Part shown: positions 13,147-64,000 of the stretch, piece by piece
Layout of the letters: each line of letters begins with the position of its first letter
Position numbering within the stretch: the first letter of the stretch is position 1
DNA from: Alphaproteobacteria bacterium
GTDB lineage: Bacteria > Pseudomonadota > Alphaproteobacteria > SMXP01
Reading direction: 5' to 3'
NCBI GenBank assembly: GCA_965214255.1
Contig: OZ243948.1
Coordinates: 516,916-580,915 of the forward strand
Length of the DNA: 64,000 nt
Notes under the pieces: generated by a model
The model's database searches: none
Told to the model about the DNA's origin: nothing
Seen by the model: the letters and a program-made list of their open reading frames with translations, nothing else
Position numbers and translations under genes: made by a program

Positions 13147-15408
13147 GTGGCGACATTTCACGACGAGAGTTTTCGGTCGATCTGGACGCAGGCTCGCTTG
13201 ATCGGAGTTCATGCTCTCGTCATCGGAGTGCGATGTGCGAAGTGCATTGGCGTTTTTGTTCGGTCTTGCTTTTGGGGCGATCAAGATCGCTGGATTCTTT
13301 GGTTCCCTGTCGCGTTGGGTATCGGCATCGCATGCTACTTTGCACTCCCCTGGGAGCCTGAATTTCTCCACGGTGTTGTCGCTCTGTCAATTGTATCGAG
13401 TGCCCTGGGTTTAGTACTTGCTCAGCGGTCGAAGTGGGAACCGCGCCGACCTGAAATTGGTTTTGTTGGCGTCATCTTTGGTGTTTTGATCCTTGCAGTG
13501 GTGCTCGGCATGTTTGCCGGTCAAATTCGCACCCGGATCGTGAAGGCTCCGGTCATTGAGCGTGAGATCGGTCCCCTTGAACTTGAAGGTCTTATCGAAA
13601 AAGCCGCCCGACAGCCGCAGGGAAGCTGGCAACTGATCATAGCGCCGCAAGCAATTGGAAATAGTCAAGTCGAAGAGCTTCCGGCACTTGTGCGGGTTAC
13701 AGTTCGCCACTTACTTGATGGTGTGGCACCGGGCATGAATTATCGCTCGCGCGTCATGCTCATGCCACCTCCTGGTCCTGTTGCGCCAGGCGAATTTGAT
13801 TTTGCGAGACAAGCTTGGTTCAATCGAATTGGCGCGGTCGGGTATTCCCTTAGTCAACCTAACATCGAAATCGCTACGGACTCTTTGGGTTGGCGTCATA
13901 CTGTACAACTGGCTTTGCGAGGCTTCCGCCAAGCCCTCGCCGAACATATTCGATCGCAACTCCCCGGAGCTGAGGGTACTGTTGCAGCCGCTTTGCTAAC
14001 GGGAGATCGTGACGCGATACCTGACGATATAGTCGAGTCGTTACGGGCTTCAGGTTTAGCCCATTTGTTGGCGATCTCGGGCCTTCATATGGCGCTGGTC
14101 GGAGGTCTGGTATTTATCTCGTTCAGGGCTTTGTTGGCGTTGATCGAACCGGTCGCTCTTAAATTTTCAATCAAGAAGTGGGCTGCTGCGGCTGGCTTGG
14201 TTGGGGCCTTCGCCTATCTGTTGATATCGGGCTCATCAATTTCGACGCAGAGAGCCTTTATCATGATCTTGATCATGCTTATCGCCGTTATGTTGGATCG
14301 GCCGGCAATTTCAATGCGTAATGTTGCTGTCGCCGCCACGATCATTTTGTTGGTTACACCCGAAAGCCTTTTGCACGTGAGTTTTCAGATGTCGTTTGCG
14401 GCAGTCGTAGGTCTTGTGAGCGCTTATGAGTGGCAACGAGATCGGCCTAATAGCTCGTCTCGAACAAACTGGATGTGGCACGACGACCCTTCGCTCCTTC
14501 GTTTGTTCATCGGGTACCTATTGGGTCTTATTGCGACGACGGCGATTGCTGAACTTATGATTGGTCCGATCGCGGCTTTTCACTTCAATCGGTTTACGTC
14601 ATTTGGAATCGTTGCGAATCTCGCGGCAATACCTCTCGTCGGATTTTTGATCATGCCGATGGGTTTGTTGGCGCTGTTACTCATGCCCATAGGTCTCGAG
14701 CAACTCGCCTTGACGCCAATGTCATGGGGTATCGAGAGCGTTGTATGGATTGCAGCTGTCGTTTCGTCATGGTCGGTTGCTGAAGTAGCCACGCCCTCAT
14801 GGCCACAAGCTGCTCTTTTGTGGATCGTATGTGGCGTTCTTTGGCTGACTCTGTGGCGGCAGTCATGGAGATATGCCGGCTTAGCTCTCATTGTCATCGG
14901 TGTGGGCGTGGCTGTTTCGCACAAACGTCCAGACGTTCTCATAGATCGGCAGGGTGCCAATATCGCCGTGCGCTCATCAGATGGAACGCTGTTGGCATTG
15001 TCAGATCATGAAGCGCGTTTTGCCTTATCGAAATGGCTTGAAAGTGAAGGACGGCCAAATGTTGAGGATCACGCTCATGCAAGGTCCCGGTTGTACAAAT
15101 GCGATGAATTGGGGTGCGTCACGACGGATCCGGAACTGCCCCTTGTTGCTTTCGTTACTGATCCAAGAGCTTTTTATGACGATTGTGAACATTCCGACTT
15201 GATTATTGCAAAGGTACCCCTTCCTCGATCGCTCGAACATGTTTGCCGGCGACATGTTATCGTTGTCGACCGGTTTGATTTGTGGAGAGAGGGCTCTCAC
15301 GCAGTCTGGTTTGAAAAGGAGGGATTTCGGGTTGAAAGTGCGGCAATGAGACGAGGTCGGAGACCTTGGTCTGGGAACTCTGCCTACCGGAAACGTGAAA
15401 ATCCCTAA
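13147..15408 (+). CDS. comEC: ComEC/Rec2-family DNA internalization channel protein
   Basis: 753 aa polytopic membrane protein with a DUF4131-like N-terminus and the competence-domain motif 'LLTGDRDAIPDDIVESLRASGLAHLLAISGLHM'. Confidence 0.8.
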   Translation: MATFHDESFRSIWTQARLIGVHALVIGVRCAKCIGVFVRSCFWGDQDRWILWFPVALGIGIACYFALPWEPEFLHGVVALSIVSSALGLVLAQRSKWEPRRPEIGFVGVIFGVLILAVVLGMFAGQIRTRIVKAPVIEREIGPLELEGLIEKAARQPQGSWQLIIAPQAIGNSQVEELPALVRVTVRHLLDGVAPGMNYRSRVMLMPPPGPVAPGEFDFARQAWFNRIGAVGYSLSQPNIEIATDSLGWRHTVQLALRGFRQALAEHIRSQLPGAEGTVAAALLTGDRDAIPDDIVESLRASGLAHLLAISGLHMALVGGLVFISFRALLALIEPVALKFSIKKWAAAAGLVGAFAYLLISGSSISTQRAFIMILIMLIAVMLDRPAISMRNVAVAATIILLVTPESLLHVSFQMSFAAVVGLVSAYEWQRDRPNSSSRTNWMWHDDPSLLRLFIGYLLGLIATTAIAELMIGPIAAFHFNRFTSFGIVANLAAIPLVGFLIMPMGLLALLLMPIGLEQLALTPMSWGIESVVWIAAVVSSWSVAEVATPSWPQAALLWIVCGVLWLTLWRQSWRYAGLALIVIGVGVAVSHKRPDVLIDRQGANIAVRSSDGTLLALSDHEARFALSKWLESEGRPNVEDHAHARSRLYKCDELGCVTTDPELPLVAFVTDPRAFYDDCEHSDLIIAKVPLPRSLEHVCRRHVIVVDRFDLWREGSHAVWFEKEGFRVESAAMRRGRRPWSGNSAYRKRENP

Positions 15409-15464
15409 CCAACGAATGAATAAATTGTCTTGCGAAGACTACAACTCAATTTCGTGAAGTCACG

Positions 15465-16183
15465 CTAATAACGGCGCAGCAAGCCCACCAATCGTCCTTG
15501 AACCTGTATGCGGTCGGGGCCAAAGATGCGTGTTTCGTAAGTCGGATTTGCAGCTTCCAACGCAATCGTCTCGCCACGTTTACGTAGCCGCTTCAATGTC
15601 GCTTCGTTGTTATCAACGAGGGCAACGACAATATCGCCGTTGTTTGCTGTGTTTCTTCTCTGAATGACAACTATGTCGCCATCTAAAATTCCGGCCTGAA
15701 TCATTGAATCACCCTGGACCTCCAGAGCGAAATGATCACCTGTAGCCATCATTTCAATAGGTACACTCACATTCTGCGTGTCATTCTGAAGCGCTTCGAT
15801 GGGTGTGCCTGCGGCAATCCGGCCAAGTACGGGCACATCGACAGCTTGTTCGTCCGTTGTATTAGTCTCAGGAACTTCGATCTGACGATTGAGCGAACCT
15901 TCGATGACGCTAGGTGAAAAACCTCTCGGACGAGCATGCATGATTGAGCCGCGGCCCGCGGTAGTATTGTCAGGCATCCGCAAAATCTCAAGCGCCCGGG
16001 CCCGATGGGCTAGGCGTTTGATAAATCCGCGTTCTTCAAGAGCGGTAACAAGCCTGTGAATCCCCGACTTCGACTTGAGTTCAAGAGCATCCTTCATTTC
16101 ATCGAAAGATGGCGCCACACCGGATTCACGAATGCGTTCATGAATGAACGTCAATAACTCATGTTGTTTGCGAGTTAACATTC
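15465..16183 (-). CDS. lexA: LexA repressor
   Basis: Winged-helix N-terminus '[29 protein letters not shown]' and C-terminal S24 peptidase ('GDSM', 'GDIVVAL...KRL'). The start was set at the ATG at 16181-16183; the longer track ORF would overlap moeA. Confidence 0.9.
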
Positions 16184-16233
16184 CACGCCTCTCCCCACTC
16201 ATGGCTAGAACAAAATGACAACATTCATGAACT

Positions 16234-16248
16234 GTTCTAGTTTGGTTC
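16234..16248. promoter_or_regulatory. Alphaproteobacterial SOS (LexA) box GTTC-N7-GTTC upstream of lexA. A second imperfect box GAAC-N7-CAAC lies at 16208-16222.
   Basis: Exact match to the GTTC(N7)GTTC direct-repeat consensus used by alphaproteobacterial LexA, 50-65 bp upstream of the lexA start. Autoregulation of lexA is expected. Confidence 0.7.
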
Positions 16249-16321
16249 TCAGTTTCCGTCAAGGCCAAGTTTACTCTATTTATTTGTAATTCACTACGAA
16301 ATGATTCGTTTTCACAACAGT

Positions 16322-17524
16322 CTATAGACGAAGTATATTGACCGATTGACCCTGTTTGGCAGCTGGTGCGTGGGGCGGTCGAACGATCAAACATCCGGCC
16401 GCTGCAAGTAAAGACATGACAGAACTGTCCTGAAGTTTAAACGGCGTCGCAATGAGTTCACCACTTTCGCCATGTTCCAGAGTAGCGCGCATATAATCCT
16501 GCCGCTTGCCATTAGCGCCCACATTTTTGCCAAGTCGCGCCGTTTCGATTGGTGGAATTAGCATTGATTTATTTCGTCCTAACAGCGCTCCGAGTATGGG
16601 CTTCAAAAAAAGCAGTGCACAGACGAGACAGGATACGGGATTTCCCGGCAAGCCCAGTAGGGGAACGCCACCTATCTCACCAAACAGCATCGGTTTGCCT
16701 GGACGCATAGCCACCTTCCAGAATTCAAGGCTCATTCCTTTGTTACCTAAAACATCACGAACTAGATCGTGATTTCCCACGGACGCTCCGCCGATCGTTA
16801 CAAACAAGTCGGTTCCGCGTCCGTTTTCCAAGGCCTGCTTGAGGCTTTGTTCGTTGTCTTTGGCAATACCTAATTGAATGCTTTCGCCGCCCCATTGGCT
16901 TATAAAAGCGCCAAGTGCATAGGGACTTGACGATATGATCTGGTCTTCGGAAGACGGGTCGCCGGGAAAAGTCAATTCATCGCCTGTAGCCAGAACTGAA
17001 ATCCGCGGCTTACGTGTGACCTCCAACCAGGGTACATTCATGGCTGCCGCCAAGCCTATGTCACGTGCGGTGAGCATCTGACCTCTCTTCAAACCAATGT
17101 GACCTTTTAGAAAATCAGTTCCTTTGGAACGGATGTGACGGCCCAGTTCAGCGGCTTTATCGATTCGAACATAACGCCCCTCAAGAACTTCAACGTCCTC
17201 CTGAATAACGATGGCATCCGCCCCCTCCGGAACAGCCGCACCTGTGAAAATTCTGACGGTCTGTCCTTTGTCTACCTTGCCATCGAAATTTGAACCGGCA
17301 GCGGATTCCCCTACCTGCTTGAGAATGGCCGGAACCTTGCTGGCGTCTTTTGCGCGAACGGCATAGCCGTCCATTGCGGACGCATCGAAAGGGGGTTGAT
17401 TACGTTGCGCTACGACATCGGCGGCTAACACCCGTCCCGCACCTTGTGTCAGGCTAACCGTTTCCGGAGGCAGAGCCGTTATGGTCGTCAGTATACGGTC
17501 AAGTGCGTCATCGACGGAGATCAT
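16322..17524 (-). CDS. moeA: Molybdopterin molybdenumtransferase
   Basis: 400 aa MoeA N/C-domain organisation with 'TGDELTFPG' and 'GGASVG' motifs. Confidence 0.9.
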
Positions 17525-56971: not shown

Positions 56972-57007
56972 ACGGTTAACGGAAACTGATTAACGGAATC
57001 CAAACGG

Positions 57008-57673
57008 TCATCCAGTACGCGTCGTCTGACCGTCGCCGTCCGCCGCGTCCGTCGGGTCCTTAAGCGACGGCCAATCGCTGAACGGGAAGGGTTTGTCCTC
57101 CCTGTTGTAGGTCAGATACATAAGAATTTCATAAACGAAGGCGCTCAGGTTCCGCCCGAATGTGAGCAGGCGTCCGTTCGTCTTTCCCGACAGCGCCATC
57201 GAAATGAATTGAAAGACGATAACGGTGAAGACCAGCAACTCCGCGAGCCCCCAAACGATCATGAACAGCAGCATGTAAAGTCCGCGCAGCCACGTGCTGC
57301 GCTTCTTGATGCTGTCCTTGAGATTGGATCGAGTCTCTTCGTTGGTCATGGCCGCCTCCTCTGACTCCGGCACCGGTTCCGCTTCCAAGGCCGCTTGAGG
57401 CGCGGTCAATGGGCCTTCGGCTTCCGGGCCGCCTGCTTGTATTGATCCTTGGTGAAAATGTTTTGAAATCTGCCGGATCACTTCCTCATATCGAGCCTTT
57501 GTGAAAATGTGGCGGGATCCGCTTCCGCAGCGGATCCCCTCCTTACGCATCGCCCGCCGCGCTGTTTTGGGCGTCACCCCGAAATGCGCCGCGACGTCCT
57601 TGGGCGTGTAGAAATCTTTCATCGGGTCGTTCGTCATGGTCACCTCTGCTTCGGTCTCCGGAGCGGACGTCAT
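57008..57673 (-). CDS. Fusion protein: N-terminal excisionase/MerR-type HTH (HTH_17-like) plus C-terminal two-TM small membrane domain (DUF4389-like)
   Basis: 'FYTPKDVAAHFGVTPKTARRAMRKEGI' resembles excisionase-family HTH. The C-terminus has two hydrophobic helices ('LYMLLFMIVWGLAELLVFTVIVFQFI', 'LSAFVYEILMYL'). The start overlaps the stop of the upstream gene (ATGA). Confidence 0.55.
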   Translation of the reverse strand: MTSAPETEAEVTMTNDPMKDFYTPKDVAAHFGVTPKTARRAMRKEGIRCGSGSRHIFTKARYEEVIRQISKHFHQGSIQAGGPEAEGPLTAPQAALEAEPVPESEEAAMTNEETRSNLKDSIKKRSTWLRGLYMLLFMIVWGLAELLVFTVIVFQFISMALSGKTNGRLLTFGRNLSAFVYEILMYLTYNREDKPFPFSDWPSLKDPTDAADGDGQTTRTG

Positions 57674-58356
57674 GTCGCGACTTCATAGAATATGCGTTTC
57701 GACTTGTCTTTGCCGATAAATTTCGCGGTCATCTTTCGGGCGGTGTCCTTGGTCCGGATGTTGTCGCGAAAGTGGGCGTGAAACGCCGAGAGCGCCGCCA
57801 GCCTCTCGGGGTCCGACTCCGGCGCGCATCGAACGAGCCGGGAGAAATAGGCGTCGAGATAGTCCAGTCCGCAGCGGGTCAAATCGTCCAGACGGGCGCG
57901 CGGATTGACGCCGAACACCGTCGCCTCGTGCCGGTACTCTTCCATCCAGTCGGGATATTTCGTCTGCACCGCGAACGGCTCGTAACCCTCAAGTATGGGT
58001 TCGAGCGGCGCGACCCATCGCGCCCGATAGGCGTCGTCCCGGAACGGCGTGCACACGTTCAAATGACAGATGACCCGGCGCGGTATCATCAGATAGAACA
58101 GAAGAAAAATCGGCGCGGCGACGGTTTCCGGCGGATAGAAAATCATGTTGAGCGCGTCGAGCGGCGGGACTTTGAGGTCGAAGTGAAGCGCCGTCATTTT
58201 GGCCAGATGCTCGGACTTCCAGTTGCGCGCCGAGATCTTCACCATCCTCAGGAACGCGGAATTGTCCGATATGTCCGGGTCCAGCGCCACTTCGGTGAGC
58301 GGCGTGTACCGGTCCGCCTTGTCGATGATTTCCCGCATCCGGGCGGTCTGGTCCAT
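57670..58356 (-). CDS. Hypothetical protein with a divergent ferredoxin-dependent bilin reductase (PcyA/PebA/HY2, Fe_bilin_red)-like fold. The catalytic Asp position appears substituted.
   Basis: Three regions align to FDBR signatures as recalled from memory. 'KSEHLAKMTALHFDL...LDALNMIFYPPE..APIF' aligns with 'FRKMHLELAKV..LDILHCVMFPEP..LPLF'. 'ICHLNVCTP' aligns with 'SAAIADLSP'. C-terminal 'RDNIRTKDTARKMTAKFIG...RIFYEV' aligns with 'QKNDKTRRVLEKAFG...QVLFDV'. The start is uncertain; an alternative is the ATG at 58387-58389 or the track start at 58452. Confidence 0.4.
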   Translation of the reverse strand: MDQTARMREIIDKADRYTPLTEVALDPDISDNSAFLRMVKISARNWKSEHLAKMTALHFDLKVPPLDALNMIFYPPETVAAPIFLLFYLMIPRRVICHLNVCTPFRDDAYRARWVAPLEPILEGYEPFAVQTKYPDWMEEYRHEATVFGVNPRARLDDLTRCGLDYLDAYFSRLVRCAPESDPERLAALSAFHAHFRDNIRTKDTARKMTAKFIGKDKSKRIFYEVAT

Positions 58357-58375
58357 GGCGGCGCCTCTCGCGTGT

Positions 58376-58600
58376 TCAAACCTCTTCATACAGGCCGCCG
58401 AGCAGTTGGCGATAATTATTCGTGTACGGACAATTCGCCGCCAGCGTCTCAAGCCGCGCTTCTATGTCGCGGTAGACGGTGCTTCGATCCACCTTGAGCG
58501 CCTCGGCGATCTGCCACACGCGCCAGCCCTTCAGCACGTGTTCCATGATCGCGTCGCGGCGTATCTCTCGAACTTGGCGGGCCGATACGGTTTGGGTCAT
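58376..58600 (-). CDS. Small stand-alone HTH protein (resolvase/HTH_7/HTH_23-type DNA-binding domain)
   Basis: 74 aa. 'GWRVWQIAEALKVDRSTVYRDIE' matches the resolvase-type HTH consensus (G...IA..L.VSRSTVYR). Located immediately downstream of the tandem repeat array. Confidence 0.55.
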   Translation of the reverse strand: MTQTVSARQVREIRRDAIMEHVLKGWRVWQIAEALKVDRSTVYRDIEARLETLAANCPYTNNYRQLLGGLYEEV

Positions 58601-58664
58601 GCGCGACAGTGTTGAGCGTCATGCGTCCGCGCGTCAAGGGGGAAGTGTCGCGGTTATTGCGGGG

Positions 58665-59200
58665 GTGTTTTGTCGCAGCCCTGGTCGCAAATCTGAACGG
58701 CGCTCGTCATGGCTAAACGCGCGCGATTCCGCCATGTTCAGGGGCAAACCGACTTTGCGACAGGGTTGCGCGTTGTCGCAGCCTATAGTCGCAAATCCGG
58801 ACGGCGCGCGACATCGCGAAAACGGCGCGATTCCGCCATGTTCGAGGGCAATTCGACTTTGCGACAGGGTTGCGCGTTGTCGCAGCCCATAGTCGCAAAT
58901 CCGGACAGCGCGCGACATCGCGAAAACGGCTCGAGTCCGCCATGTTCAGGGGCAAACCGACCTTGCGACAGGGTTGCGTGTTGTCGCAGCCCATAGTCGC
59001 AAATCCGGACGGCGCGAGTCATCGCGAAAACGGCGCGATTCCGCCCTGTTCAAGGGCAATCCGACCTTGCGACAGGGTTGCGCATTGTCGCAGTCAATAG
59101 TCGCAAGACCGGACCGCGCGCGGCATGGCTAAACGCGCGCGATTCCGCCCTGTTTGAGGGCAAACCGACTTTGCGACAGGGTCGCGCGTTGTCGCAGGTT
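58665..59200. repeat. Tandem array of about 5 copies of a 104-bp non-coding repeat, each carrying a TGCGACA-N11-TGTCGCA hairpin
   Basis: The motif 'TTGCGACAGGGTTGCG(C/T)' recurs at 58755, 58859, 58963, 59067 and 59171, an exact 104-bp period. Units 2-4 are near-identical. Units 1 and 5 share the variant 'CATGGCTAAACGCGCGCGATTCCGCC'. A period of 104 is not divisible by 3. Confidence 0.85.
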
Positions 59201-59344
59201 ATTTTCCGGACCGGCCACGCATTAGCGCGTCATCACATTCAAGGCTTGTGCGCGGATATCCTCGTTGGTATGCCAAGCACTGAAAGCCGCCGACCTGCCG
59301 CGCGGCCATGATGGGACGCAAGACTGGAGAAGAGACGACCGGCC

Positions 59345-61523
59345 GTGAACGTTCAAACGCACGAAAAACTGAAAGCCGGGATCTGGGACATCGCGAACCT
59401 GCTGCGCGGGCCGTACCGGCCTCCCCAGTACCGCCTGGTGATGCTTCCGATGGTCGTGCTCCGCCGGCTCGACTGCGTCCTGGAGTCGACCAAAGACGCG
59501 GTGCTGAAGCGCCGCGACGAACTCGAAGCGCAGTGCGTGCCCGAAGCCGCGATGGACAAACTGCTCGGCCAAGCCGCCGACCCGAAGCGCAAGCATCCGC
59601 TCTACAATATCAGCCCCTACACCTTCGCCCGCCTGCTCGGCGACGCCGAGAACATCGCGCCCAACCTCGCGGCCTACATCAACGGCTTCTCGCCGACCGC
59701 CCATTCCATCTTCGAGCGCTTCAAGTTCACCGATCAGATCGAGAAACTCGACGCGCACAACCGTCTCTTCACCGTGGTCAAGGCCATGGCCGGCGTCGAC
59801 CTTCACCCCGACCGGATCGACAACCTTCAGATGGGCTACCTGTTCGAGCATCTGGTGATGCGTTTCAACGAACAGGCCAACGAGGAAGCGGGAGACCACT
59901 TCACCCCGCGCGAGGTCATCCGCCTCATGGCCAACCTCATCTACACCGGCGAACCGGACGTCTACAAGCCCGGCATTTTCCGCAAAATCTACGATCCCGC
60001 GTGCGGGACCGGCGGCATGCTCTCGGAGTCCGAAAAACTGATCCGCGACCAGAACAAACATGCGAACCTCGCGCTCTACGGCCAGGAGTACAACGACGAG
60101 GCGTGGGCGATCTGCTGCGCGGACATGCTCATCAAGGACCAGGACACCGGCAACATCGTTCTCGGCGACACTCTGGGCGACGGCAAGACCGGAGACGACT
60201 TTGAGGGCTTCCATTATATGATGGCCAATCCGCCCTTCGGCGTCGAATGGAAGGCGCAGAAAGACACGGTCCGACGCGAGCACGAGACCTTGGGGCTCTC
60301 GGGCCGCTTCGGCGCCGGGCTGCCCGCCGTCGACGACGGCTCGCTGCTTTTCCTCCAGCACATGATCTCCAAGATGCACCCGTACAGGTGCGGGGGGGGG
60401 GCGTAGAGAGCAGCCCGGATCGAAGATCGCTATCGTCTTCAACGGCTCGCCTTTGTTTTCCGGCGACGCCGGATCGGGGCCGTCCGACATCCGCCGCTGG
60501 ATCGTAGAGAACGACTGGCTCGACGCCGTCGTCGCGCTGCCTGACCAGCTTTTCTACAACACCGGCATCTTCACCTATGTCTGGCTGGTGACCAACCGCA
60601 AGGCGCCGGAGCGGCGCGGCAAGGTGCAGCTTGTCGACGGCGCGCGCTTCTTCCGCAAGATGAAGAAGAGCCTCAACAACAAGCGCAACGAGATCGCCGA
60701 AGACCAGATCCGCCGCCTGACCCGCGTCTACGCCAACTTCGAAGACGGCGAGACCGCCGAAGTCCAGGTCGACGGCGAAACCGAGACCCGAGTCGTTTCC
60801 CGCGTCTTCGAGAACCGCGAGTTCGGGTTTCTCAAAATAACCGTCGAACGCCCCTTGCGCATGAACTTCGAGGCGTCGCCTGAGCGCATCGCCGGGCTCG
60901 ATGAGCTGACGGCCTTCGCCAACCTGGCGGCGTCGAAGAAACGCAAGGACGAGTCCGCCGCCGCGCGCGAAATCGCTGCGGGGCGAAAGCTGCAGGACGC
61001 CGTCCGCGCCCTGCTCTCGACGCTCGCCGAAAACGGACGATATATGGACCGGACGGCCTTCGACGCCGATCTGACGACGGCCGCCGAGCGCGCCGGCCTC
61101 AAGCTTCCCGCCCCGATCAGGAAAGCGGTCTTCGCGGCGCTTGGGCAGCGCGACCCGGACGCGGAGATCTGCCGCGACGGCGAAGGACGGCCGGAACCCG
61201 ACGGCGACCTCCGCGACAGCGAAAACATTCCCTTGCCGCCGGGAACGGAACTGCCCCTGCCCATGGACTTCGGGCCAGACCAGCCCAACGACCTGCTCGT
61301 CGAAGCGTTCCGGGACCATATCGACGCCTACATGGCGCGCGAGGTGCTGCCCCATATTCCCGACGCCTGGGTGGACTACGCCAAGACCAAAGTCGGTTAC
61401 GAAATCCCCATCAACCGGCATTTCCATGTCTACGAGCCGCCGCGCCCTATCGACGAGATCGAGACGGACATCGCCAAGCTCGAAGACGAGATCGCCGGGC
61501 TGTTGAAAGGGCTGAGGGCGTGA
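59345..61523 (+). CDS. hsdM: Type I restriction-modification system methyltransferase subunit HsdM, split into two frames at a G10 homopolymer (putative phase-variable gene)
   Basis: The N-terminal part (59345-60406) has the HsdM_N motif 'IWDIANLLRGPYRPPQYRLVMLPMVVLRRLD' and the 'NPPFG' catalytic motif. The C-terminal part (60453-61523 in the track, in frame from about 60402) has 'IVFNGSPLFSGDAGSGPSDIRRWIVENDWLDAVVALPDQLFYNTGI'. Removing one G from the tract fuses the parts. GTG start, SD 'GGAGAAGAG'. Confidence 0.85.
60392..60401 (+). repeat. Poly-G tract (G10) inside hsdM coding sequence; simple-sequence contingency locus
   Basis: The sequence reads 'gtgc' followed by ten G and then 'cgtag'. 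In the current frame it encodes 'CGGGA*'. With G9 it encodes 'CGGGRREQPGSKIAIVFNG...', which continues into the C-terminal HsdM domain. Confidence 0.8.
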
Positions 61524-62836
61524 CAGCCGAGTTCGAGCAGCGCTGGTTGAGCGATCTACAGCCCGACTGGACCGAGAGGCGGGCCGACTTTCTGTGCAAC
61601 CCTTACCGAGTGACAGTCGATCCCGAGATTTTTGGCGACGATCTAGTCGCGCACTACTCGATCCCGCAGGTTCAAAAGACCGGCGGACCGTTCATCGAAC
61701 CCGCAAGCGACATCGGCAGTACGAAATTACTTGTAACGGCACCCACCCTTCTGGTCTCGAAACTCAATCCAAGAAAGAAGACTATCTGCATCGCCGAACC
61801 CCACCCGGAGTATCCGACTCTTGCTTCGGGCGAGTTCGTCGCGATCATTTCCGACCAGATGGACCGTCGCTATGCTTACTATCTTTGGTGCAGCGAGAAG
61901 GTCACGGACCGGTTGTCCGCCATTGTTCAATCTGCCACCCGCTCGCACCAACGAGTGAACCCTGCCGACATCCAAAAGCTGCCGTGGAAATGGCCCCCGC
62001 TCGATATGCAGCGGCGCATCGCCGACTTTCTCGACGAAAAAACCTCGCGGATCGACGGACTGATCGAGAAGAAACGCGACCTTCTCGACCGGCTCGCCGA
62101 GAAACGCCAAGCCCTCATCACCCGCGCCGTCACCAGGGGCCTCGACCCCGACGCGCCGATGAAACCCTCCGGCATCGACTGGCTTGGCGACATCCCCGCG
62201 CATTGGAAGCGCATTCGTCTTCGCTGGCTATCCAGACGCTATGCCGGCGGAACCCCAAACACGAAGAACCCCGAATACTGGGACGGCGGCACCATACCTT
62301 GGCTCAAATCAGGGGCGGTGAACCAAGGCACCATTACCGAGCCTTCCGATCACATAACCGAACTGGCCTTGAAGGAATCCAGCGCGAAATGGATTCCTAA
62401 AGGCGCACTGGTGATGGCACTAGCCGGGCAAGGGAAGACCAAAGCAACTGTTGGTTTTCTTGGGATTCGGACAACGGGCAATCAATCGCTCGCCGCGATA
62501 GTCCCCGAGAAGATCGACGGCAAATACCTCTATTGGTGGCTGAGCAGTCAGTACCTCACGCTTCGCAATCTTTCGAGCCAAGATGGGCGCGACGGTTTGA
62601 ACCTGGATATGATTGGCAGCGTAGTTTGTCCGGTGCCCCCGCTCGATACGCAACGGCGCATCGCCGACTTTCTCGACGAAAAAACCGCACGGATCGACGA
62701 GACCGCAAAGCAGGTGCTCCGCTCGATCGAATATCTCTCGGAATACCGCTCGGCGCTGATCACGGCCGCCGTCACCGGCCAACTCGCGGCGGCGCAGACC
62801 GCCGACCTCGGCAACCTTTCCCCGCAGGGAGATTGA
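61520..62836 (+). CDS. hsdS: Type I restriction-modification system specificity subunit HsdS (two target-recognition domains)
   Basis: The conserved spacer repeats 'QRRIADFLDEKTSRIDGLIEKKRDLLDRLAEKRQALITRAVTRGLDP' and 'QRRIADFLDEKTARIDETAKQVLRSIEYLSEYRSALITAAVTGQL' flank two variable TRDs. The GTG start overlaps the hsdM stop (GTGA). Confidence 0.85.
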   Translation: MTAEFEQRWLSDLQPDWTERRADFLCNPYRVTVDPEIFGDDLVAHYSIPQVQKTGGPFIEPASDIGSTKLLVTAPTLLVSKLNPRKKTICIAEPHPEYPTLASGEFVAIISDQMDRRYAYYLWCSEKVTDRLSAIVQSATRSHQRVNPADIQKLPWKWPPLDMQRRIADFLDEKTSRIDGLIEKKRDLLDRLAEKRQALITRAVTRGLDPDAPMKPSGIDWLGDIPAHWKRIRLRWLSRRYAGGTPNTKNPEYWDGGTIPWLKSGAVNQGTITEPSDHITELALKESSAKWIPKGALVMALAGQGKTKATVGFLGIRTTGNQSLAAIVPEKIDGKYLYWWLSSQYLTLRNLSSQDGRDGLNLDMIGSVVCPVPPLDTQRRIADFLDEKTARIDETAKQVLRSIEYLSEYRSALITAAVTGQLAAAQTADLGNLSPQGD

Positions 62837-62840
62837 CCCC

Positions 62841-64000
62841 ATGCCCGGCCATACCGAACGCGATTTCGAAGCGGCGATCGAAGCCGAACTGACCGGCTCC
62901 GGCGGTTACGAAAAGCGCAATCCGGACGCCTTCGACGAGTCCCTCGCCCTCTTTCCCGACGACGTTTGCGGCTTCCTCGAAGACAGCCAACCGGCCAAAT
63001 GGCACGCGCTTGAGGCGCTGCTGGGGGCGAAGACCGCCGCCGCGGTTTTGGACGACCTGTCCAAGGAACTCGAGATCAAGGGCGCGCTGCACGTCCTGCG
63101 CCACGGTTTCAAGTGTTACGGCAAGACGCTCCGCATGGCGTATTTCCGTCCCAACACGAGCATGAATCCGCAAGCCGCCGAGAATTACGCCGCCAACCGG
63201 CTGACGATCACGCGGCAAGTGGCCTTCGCTTCGGTCATGAAGACGGCGGAGGGCAAGCCCCGCCGCTGCGTCATCGACGTGACCCTTGCCGTCAACGGCA
63301 TCCCGGTCGTCACCGCCGAACTCAAAAATCCGCTGACCGGGCAGCGCGCCGCCGACGCGATACGCCAGTACCAGGACGACCGCGACGGGCGCGACCTGTT
63401 GTTCGCGTTCAAGAAGCGCGCCCTGGTTCACTTCGCGGTGGACCCGGACGAGGTGTGGATGACGACCCGGTTGAGAGGACGGGAGACCGACTTCCTGCCC
63501 TTCAACCGCGGCAACGACCATGGGAGCGGCAATCCGCCGGTCGAGGGCAATTGGAAGACCCATTACCTTTGGGACGAGGTTCTGCAGGCGGACAGCCTCA
63601 TCGAAATACTGCAGCGCTTCATGCACCTCGAAAAGAAGGAAAAGCGGGTCGAGACCGGCAACGGCGCGCGCGCCGCAAGCAAGGAGACGATGATCTTCCC
63701 GCGCTATCACCAACTCGACGCAGTCCGCAAGCTCGTCGCCCACACCAAAGCCAACGGCGCGGGACGGAACTACCTGATCCAGCACTCCGCCGGTTCCGGC
63801 AAATCGAACTCGATCGCCTGGCTCGCCCACCGTCTGGCCGGCCTGCACGACGAGGGCGACGAGAAGGTGTTTCACTCGGTCGTTGTCGTCACCGACCGGC
63901 GCGTGCTCGACCGGCAGTTGCAGAACACGATCTACCAGTTCGAGCACAAGACCGGCGTGGTCGAGAAGATCGACGAGGACACGAAGCAGCTCGCCGCGGC
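62841..64000 (+). CDS. hsdR: Type I restriction enzyme R subunit HsdR, N-terminal part (3' end outside window)
   Basis: Own translation from the ATG at 62841 reads 'MPGHTERDFEAAIEAELTGSGGYEKRN...'. It later contains the helicase motif I 'LIQHSAGSGKSNSIAWLAHRL'. No stop before the window end. The ORF is absent from the track because it is open-ended. Confidence 0.8.
   Translation, partial: MPGHTERDFEAAIEAELTGSGGYEKRNPDAFDESLALFPDDVCGFLEDSQPAKWHALEALLGAKTAAAVLDDLSKELEIKGALHVLRHGFKCYGKTLRMAYFRPNTSMNPQAAENYAANRLTITRQVAFASVMKTAEGKPRRCVIDVTLAVNGIPVVTAELKNPLTGQRAADAIRQYQDDRDGRDLLFAFKKRALVHFAVDPDEVWMTTRLRGRETDFLPFNRGNDHGSGNPPVEGNWKTHYLWDEVLQADSLIEILQRFMHLEKKEKRVETGNGARAASKETMIFPRYHQLDAVRKLVAHTKANGAGRNYLIQHSAGSGKSNSIAWLAHRLAGLHDEGDEKVFHSVVVVTDRRVLDRQLQNTIYQFEHKTGVVEKIDEDTKQLAA

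Follow-up and report, generated by a model that had tools for sequence, protein, structure and literature searches.

Does an hsdM gene split by a run of ten guanines represent a broken gene, or one that has been caught in the OFF position of a switch? The question is raised by a 64,000-nucleotide stretch of alphaproteobacterial DNA (contig OZ243948.1, positions 516,916 to 580,915 of the forward strand; hereafter the window), which carries a type I restriction-modification (R-M) operon, hsdM-hsdS-hsdR. All three genes are present, the last of them continuing past the end of the window, and the methyltransferase gene hsdM is interrupted at a G10 homopolymer. We consider it somewhat better than an even chance that this tract is a slipped-strand ON/OFF switch of the predicted R-M system, and that the system is presently OFF.

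The G10 tract and the hsdM reading frame

The interrupted gene consists of the following parts:

59345-60406, + strand: N-terminal part of hsdM, 353 aa, with a GTG start; it encodes HsdM_N and the methyltransferase domain as far as the FLQHMISKM helix, motif IV (NPPF) included, and ends at a TAG one codon past the tract
60392-60401, + strand: G10 homopolymer, providing Gly-Gly-Gly codons in a variable loop; the frame is kept at G9 or G12 but lost at the G10 found
60402-61523, + strand: C-terminal part of hsdM in the +1 frame, from RREQPGSKIAIVFNGSPLF... to LKGLRA

A sequence-only reading of the window had claimed that hsdM is divided between two frames at the tract and that G9 or G12 would restore a continuous protein, and both claims were borne out by open reading frame (ORF) analysis. 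The +1 frame is open from 60366 to 61523, and the exact 353-aa product of the N-terminal part is on record on the source contig (2,787,154 bp). When tract length was set in silico, G9 and G12 gave single ORFs of 725 and 726 aa, respectively, while G8, G10, G11 and G13 gave no single ORF. The fused, G9-corrected protein matched the Pfam families PF12161 (HsdM_N, E 1e-20) and PF02384 (N6_Mtase, E 2e-54), and both DPACGTGG and NPPF, the motifs looked for in a gamma-class N6-adenine methyltransferase domain, were found in it.

In a survey of REBASE, 2% of hsdM genes counted as potentially phase-variable (Atack et al. 2019, FASEB J 34:1038; PMC7383803), the accepted signature in hsd genes being a mononucleotide tract of at least nine bases. 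The tract lies within the ORF, its unit is not divisible by three, and it exceeds this length. It is also the sole homopolymer of at least nine bases in the window. Runs of G5, G6 and G7 occur 23, 10 and 2 times, respectively, and there are no runs of G8 or G9. Given this four- to five-fold thinning with each added base, well under 0.1 G10 tracts would be expected per window, so the tract is far beyond chance.

The glycine residues are placed in a variable loop of the methyltransferase domain, which the FLQH helix precedes and the GSKIAIVFNG strand follows. After FLQHMISKM, relatives read HPY-EEGDED-QPGSKIAIVFNG and the window reads HPY-RCGGGRRE-QPGSKIAIVFNG; by sequence alignment, solved HsdM chains (7vru; EcoR124 7bst) have a much shorter loop here. 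The site had been described as a poly-Gly linker; the tract does encode glycine, but on these alignments the segment is a length-tolerant loop of the catalytic domain and not an inter-domain linker.

In the host lineage, a short G run in the loop (at most G5) would have grown to G10; if the tract is a switch, slipped-strand mispairing at replication would then add or remove a base. At G9 or G12 a full-length HsdM of 725 or 726 aa would be made (ON), and at G10 or G11 translation would end one to about 35 codons past the tract (OFF). Since HsdM is needed for methylation and restriction alike, the OFF state would silence the whole system without self-restriction. The premature stop at 60406 may also reduce translation of hsdS, whose start overlaps the hsdM stop. 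For such a switch to operate, tract length would have to change at a useful rate and the ON state be selected periodically; both are presumed here. Control of a regulon by the switch (a 'phasevarion') is speculation.

The tract in other assemblies

Five assemblies were compared: that of the window; GCA_964347375.1 (L082/L085), a metagenome-assembled genome (MAG) with the locus on a 180,891-bp contig; ERZ21848999 (L086; SPAdes NODE_92) and ERZ21849000 (L087; SPAdes NODE_17852), with coverages, by contig name, of 18 and 11.5; and ERZ25070786 (L084), with the long-read contig ctg141539l. Exact look-ups placed proteins at least 90% identical on a few further contigs, and other copies of the locus were reached through the neighbouring DUF4389 protein and cluster members. 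The tract was exactly G10, and hsdM was called as two ORFs, in every case (L082, L085, L086, L087, L084 and the window). L082, L086 and L087 are 99.98 to 100% identical and represent the same strain, so that with L084 and the window there are three alleles. Nucleotide identity of hsdM is 94.6 to 94.7% between the window and L082 or L084. Housekeeping neighbours are 96 to 100% identical in nucleotides between the window and L082, indicating that these are strains of one species.

The majority state in all sampled genomes is thus predicted to be OFF. The suggestion of a phase-variable R-M system is upheld as far as the complete operon and a tract above the nine-base threshold are concerned, but length variation was not seen, three of three alleles having G10. 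This constancy across strains leaves a pseudogene, recoding and systematic error to be weighed as rivals.

The last of these supposes that the true tract is G9 and that the extra G is a systematic homopolymer miscall. The window has no homopolymer as long as G10 elsewhere, and errors are commonest at such sites; in addition, L084 is a long-read contig with probable homopolymer errors elsewhere. In positions 1-900 of L084, hflX is split by two 1-nt insertions, one of which turns A6 into A7, and in 13490-16580 hsdR lies in two frames. As the same assembly also breaks hflX, these frameshifts are probably errors, and among the alleles the tract length of L084 is the least trustworthy. However, G10 was recovered in two short-read SPAdes assemblies (coverages of about 18 and 11.5), in the MAG and in the source contig, and it stands in two alleles with differing flanks. 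No other homopolymer of at least seven bases in the window breaks a frame: the other 11, of seven to eight bases, are all in frame, including those in cdsA (G7) and hfq (A8), which were examined closely. Generic homopolymer error across the window is thereby ruled out. A random miscall or assembly error of G10 in the window and the L082 allele is very unlikely, and systematic error has only a slim chance of explaining the tract. Sequencing error, put forward with the sequence-only reading as the alternative to phase variation, is therefore largely rejected, with G10 recurring in the MAG, both SPAdes assemblies and the long-read contig.

The flanks also bear on the direction in which each allele is out of frame. 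In the window and L082 the tract is preceded by AGG TGC, whereas L084 has A followed directly by G10, being 5 nt shorter immediately next to the tract; L084 is therefore in frame at G8 or G11 instead of G9 or G12. Thus, G10 is one base above an ON length in the window and L082, and in L084 either one below G11 or two above G8. Such mixed offsets from ON are what random lengths, two-thirds of them OFF, would often give.

Selection on hsdM and the rival explanations

To compare the alleles, each tract was corrected to the nearest in-frame length before the ratio of nonsynonymous to synonymous substitution rates (dN/dS) was calculated. The corrected coding sequences (725, 727 and 726 aa in the window, L082 and L084, respectively) have no internal stops, and the window and L082 are separated by just one other coding indel, an in-frame one of 6 nt. 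The dN/dS was 0.34 for the window against L082 (Fisher p 6e-8 versus neutrality), 0.30 for the window against L084 (p 3e-9) and 0.14 for L082 against L084 (p 2e-14). Intact neighbours at similarly shallow divergence gave 0.08 to 0.36, and the hsdM values are within this range. When 111 differences were placed randomly, a mean of 3.4 stops resulted, the probability of none being 0.03. In 407 columns that are at least 97% conserved across the family, the window and L082 show just 12 private departures. All three alleles share the tract, so it predates their split. Taken together, these values argue that hsdM, apart from its tract, encodes a probably functional protein maintained by selection since the alleles diverged, and they argue against an old knockout.

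The frame downstream of the tract provides a further constraint. It contains no ATG, GTG or TTG until 60453, where a TTG is the earliest possible restart. Since there is no start codon before this point, the conserved GSKIAIVFNGSP strand can be translated solely by read-through of the tract. Over the 17 codons from the tract to the first possible restart, the window and L082 differ, outside the loop, only by synonymous changes (CCT/CCG, TTG/CTG, TTT/TTC), indicating that reading of the downstream frame begins at the tract. Past the loop and ahead of that restart codon, L084 has one Ile/Val change in addition.

These results bear directly on whether two separate polypeptides might assemble into an active methyltransferase. 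The break does fall in a loop between secondary-structure elements, and gene callers predict two ORFs in every assembly. Nevertheless, an independent C-terminal product starting no earlier than 60453 would lack the GSKIAIVFNGSP strand, yet that stretch is conserved as protein, and all 109 near-full-length family members that were aligned are single chains of about 725 aa. A split HsdM is scarcely credible.

The family comparison also shows where the tract may have come from. The G9-corrected HsdM is 80 to 82% identical, over its full length, to a widespread family, nearly all members of which have the modal length of 725 aa; their hosts include Chromatiaceae, many alpha- and gammaproteobacterial MAGs, Gemmatimonadota, Binatia and others, and the 725-aa proteins are named type I subunit M in their sources. 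G5 occurs in the 45-nt loop segment of 15 of 68 family loci, typically within GAG GGG GAC, and no longer loop G run was found among the 68; the longest homopolymer anywhere in the family hsdM genes is eight bases. More than 100 other family members were examined, and all were in frame without the tract. From these alignments, the simplest reading is that a short run of at most G5 expanded to G10 in this lineage alone.

Two exact patterns of the tract plus its flanks gave no matches in genome and metagenome contig collections, either because the species is absent there or because the flanks differ. The top-scoring protein match, P0001 (820 aa), was considered as a same-species ON allele and rejected: it is a homologue of 79% identity in which an internal segment of about 95 aa is duplicated in tandem (two copies of GVKIPALIK...PDAWVD). 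Two other family members are cut at the homologous loop: P0164 (415 aa, 82% identical, from another lineage) leaves its frame right after HPYEEG, and P0198 stops at YPFEEG. In the wider HsdM family, this loop may be a hotspot for frameshifts or errors.

Several observations weigh against a switch. No difference in G count was seen among the three alleles in five assemblies, a small sample of consensus sequences, and all are out of frame; consensus assemblies hide mixtures of lengths within a population. An identical G count in strains about 5% apart is unexpected for a very mutable tract. In two protein searches of a 5.8-billion-cluster collection, identity to in-frame proteins did not rise above 82%. 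In the REBASE survey, repeats in hsdM mostly occupy the 5' region and not the middle of the gene (PMC7383803). There is no other tract of at least nine bases in the 64 kb seen, and so no sign of general repeat-based contingency loci. Finally, the window branch carries most of the amino-acid change (branch dN/dS about 0.44, by arithmetic on the pairwise values), including radical changes at family-conserved positions (R19L, P48S, G285D, D304A and Y694H), which could mean relaxed constraint, perhaps recent, in the window strain.

The branch pattern, together with the constant tract, is what a young or recurrent pseudogene might be expected to leave. Under this explanation poly-G would be a mere mutational weak spot and OFF would have become fixed without adaptive switching, the R-M system being in the process of loss. 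All alleles are G10 and out of frame, with no ON allele in the protein collection searched; the window has seven private changes at columns that are at least 97% conserved, several of them radical, and the highest pairwise dN/dS (0.30 to 0.34); hsdR is also frameshifted in L084; and the frameshift of P0164, right after HPYEEG, is in the homologous loop of another lineage. Set against this are a dN/dS significantly below 1 in all three comparisons and, although the alleles are about 5% divergent, the lack of stops or frame-breaking indels in the rest of the 2.2 kb. Furthermore, hsdS is intact with diversified recognition domains, hsdR is intact (1027 aa) in the window's genome and in L082, and the L084 frameshifts are probably assembly errors. 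The tract is older than the allele split, and a knockout of such age should have decayed. The sequence-only reading had taken an invariant, out-of-frame tract as the mark of a fixed pseudogene; the invariance is there, but the conclusion conflicts with the measured purifying selection, and loss of the gene is an unlikely explanation.

Recoding would reconcile the constant genotype with purifying selection, for G10 would then be the selected state. Slippage would restore the frame, either of tRNA-Gly on the ribosome (+1 in the window and L082) or of RNA polymerase. If so, an invariant genotype would yield full-length HsdM at a low, set level, together with an N-terminal product that is truncated. 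G10 is identical in alleles about 5% apart while both half-ORFs are under purifying selection, and the collection searched held no in-frame allele. The 0-frame stop is one codon after the run in both the window and L082, though the sequences differ (GCG TAG versus GCA TGA), and on a G run tRNA-Gly could re-pair perfectly after a shift of +1 or -1. However, if G10 is correct in L084, that allele needs a shift of -1 or +2 where the window and L082 need +1. The direction of shift is therefore not conserved, and no single directional frameshift fits all alleles. Across the genomes of Escherichia coli and Buchnera, transcriptional insertions were confined to runs of A or T, with none in runs of G or C (PMC5574713). 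GGG is not rare, making up 19 to 21% of Gly codons, which rules out a hungry-codon argument. In prfB the stop directly adjoins the slippery codons, which is not so here, and a prfB-like +1 frameshift at the stop is ruled out since the intervening GCG or GCA codon could not re-pair. On this evidence recoding is improbable; if true, recoding on a run of G would be unusual for a bacterial R-M gene.

Known slippage-rescued genes (poly-A runs of Buchnera and Blochmannia, dnaX and insertion sequence elements; PMC5009743, PMC1088944) likewise have a conserved out-of-frame homopolymer under purifying selection. They use A or T runs, whereas the run here is of G and its three alleles would need differing shift directions.

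The operon, known switches and the neighbourhood

The rest of the operon comprises:

61520-62836, + strand: hsdS, 438 aa, with two target-recognition domains (TRDs); its GTG start overlaps the hsdM stop (GTGA)
61993-62057, + strand: central conserved region of hsdS (PPLDMQRRIADFLDEKTSRID), first copy of a 65-nt direct repeat
62635-62699, + strand: distal conserved region of hsdS (PPLDTQRRIADFLDEKTARID), the 65-nt repeat's second copy, at 94% identity
62841-64000 and off the window end, + strand: hsdR, first 386 codons; the full product is 1027 aa on the source contig

The remainder of the R-M system looks functional, as judged from its genes. Residues 242-402 of HsdS match PF01420 (Methylase_S) in Pfam, and the two TRDs and two repeated conserved regions expected of the protein were found. 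The first 386 aa of HsdR match PF04313 (HSDR_N), PF18766 and PF04851, and include the nuclease region and SF2 helicase domains of the translocase. HsdR is intact, at 1027 aa, in the source contig and in L082; it is hsdR of L084 that carries a frameshift. HsdS is intact in all strains (at 4092-5471 in L082 and 12214-13488 in L084), and a four-way alignment shows a variable-conserved-variable-conserved pattern. TRD1 is different in all three alleles, while TRD2 is identical in the window and L084 and different in L082, with the breakpoint between the window and L084 at the central conserved region. At least three specificities are thus predicted in one species.

A 33-bp perfect direct repeat in hsdS had been proposed as a means of TRD rearrangement. 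The repeat is real, and exchange between strains has its breakpoint at the central copy, but it is part of the 65-nt, 94%-identical pair and encodes PPLDxQRRIADFLDEKTxRID twice. It is the ordinary central and distal conserved pair of an HsdS, a substrate for TRD exchange between strains and not a special intragenic switch.

The kind of switch proposed for hsdM is already known (Atack et al. 2019), and what is new is a provisional case in an uncultured alphaproteobacterium. As with the hsdM repeats CGAGA[n] of Haemophilus influenzae and ACAGC[n] of Mannheimia haemolytica (PMC7383803), a non-triplet repeat lies inside the hsdM ORF, methylation and restriction would be switched ON and OFF together, and the rest of the operon is intact. 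The surveyed hsdM repeats are mostly 5', whereas here a mononucleotide G tract is found mid-gene, in a loop of the catalytic domain, and the host is probably environmental or symbiotic rather than a host-adapted pathogen. Named examples in the survey show ranges of length between strains; in contrast, G10 is present here in all three alleles. The case is mildly unusual in its mid-gene loop position and in the invariant OFF length across strains.

Poly-G tracts within a type I gene, switched by slipped-strand mispairing, are also found in hsdS of M. haemolytica and Salmonella (PMC7383803). There, a G[n] tract between the TRDs switches specificity, by producing full-length or half HsdS, whereas the hsdM tract would switch the whole system. 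The NgoAV hsdS of Neisseria gonorrhoeae is another example of a poly-G tract. Switching mod genes follow the same logic, a repeat in a methyltransferase gene, where being OFF carries no danger since restriction requires the methyltransferase subunit. They belong, however, to a different enzyme family, and although regulon control is established for several mod genes, nothing at this locus bears on regulation.

Should the tract prove to switch, a deep-branching alphaproteobacterium that is uncultured would have a type I R-M system under repeat control, and contingency loci, studied mostly in host-adapted pathogens, would extend to a little-known lineage. It would also be an example of an ordinary G5 growing, in a tolerant loop, into a tract of this kind. 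When an OFF allele is annotated in fragments, the REBASE survey misses it, as its authors note (PMC7383803), and so does any pipeline limited to full-length genes; here two ORFs are called in every assembly.

The genes adjoining the operon (rlpA, dacA, tmk, holB, tatD, hflX and hfq) indicate that the locus is chromosomal. A plasmid origin was rejected, as megablast of 57000-64000 found in plasmids no more than a Rhodococcus hsdR match of 2% coverage and about 75% identity. HflX of the host is only about 60% identical to that of named Hyphomicrobiales, and the host is an uncultured alphaproteobacterium, probably of environmental or symbiotic habit.

About 150 bp upstream of the hsdM start is an array of a 104-bp tandem unit (58670-59197; 5.1 copies at 87% identity). 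The unit has no Rfam match and no further copies within the window, and an Rfam scan of 58300-60600 likewise gave no match. The unit is found again in L081, L082 and L083; two of these, the short-read contigs L081 and L083, terminate in or near the array. Between the array region and hsdM, L082 and L084 have a FitA-like/PIN toxin-antitoxin pair, which is absent from the window.

Further upstream are genes for a ferredoxin-dependent bilin reductase-like protein (57670-58452, - strand) and a DUF4389 membrane protein (57008-57673, - strand), a pair kept in all relatives. The bilin reductase-like protein belongs to PF05996, with weak NCBIfam matches to PebB and PebA; the host otherwise looks heterotrophic.

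The window also has a step in G+C content between about 28 and 38 kb. G+C is about 50% at 2-28 kb (bamA, lpxD, lpxB, gltA, comEC, moeA, trpE and eno) and about 61% at 38-64 kb (ntrYX, trkAH, hfq, hflX, holB, dacA, rlpA and hsdMSR), with core genes on both sides. As proteins from each half have homologues, at least 90% identical, on the one 180,891-bp contig of the relative, the step is probably real and not the product of a chimeric assembly.

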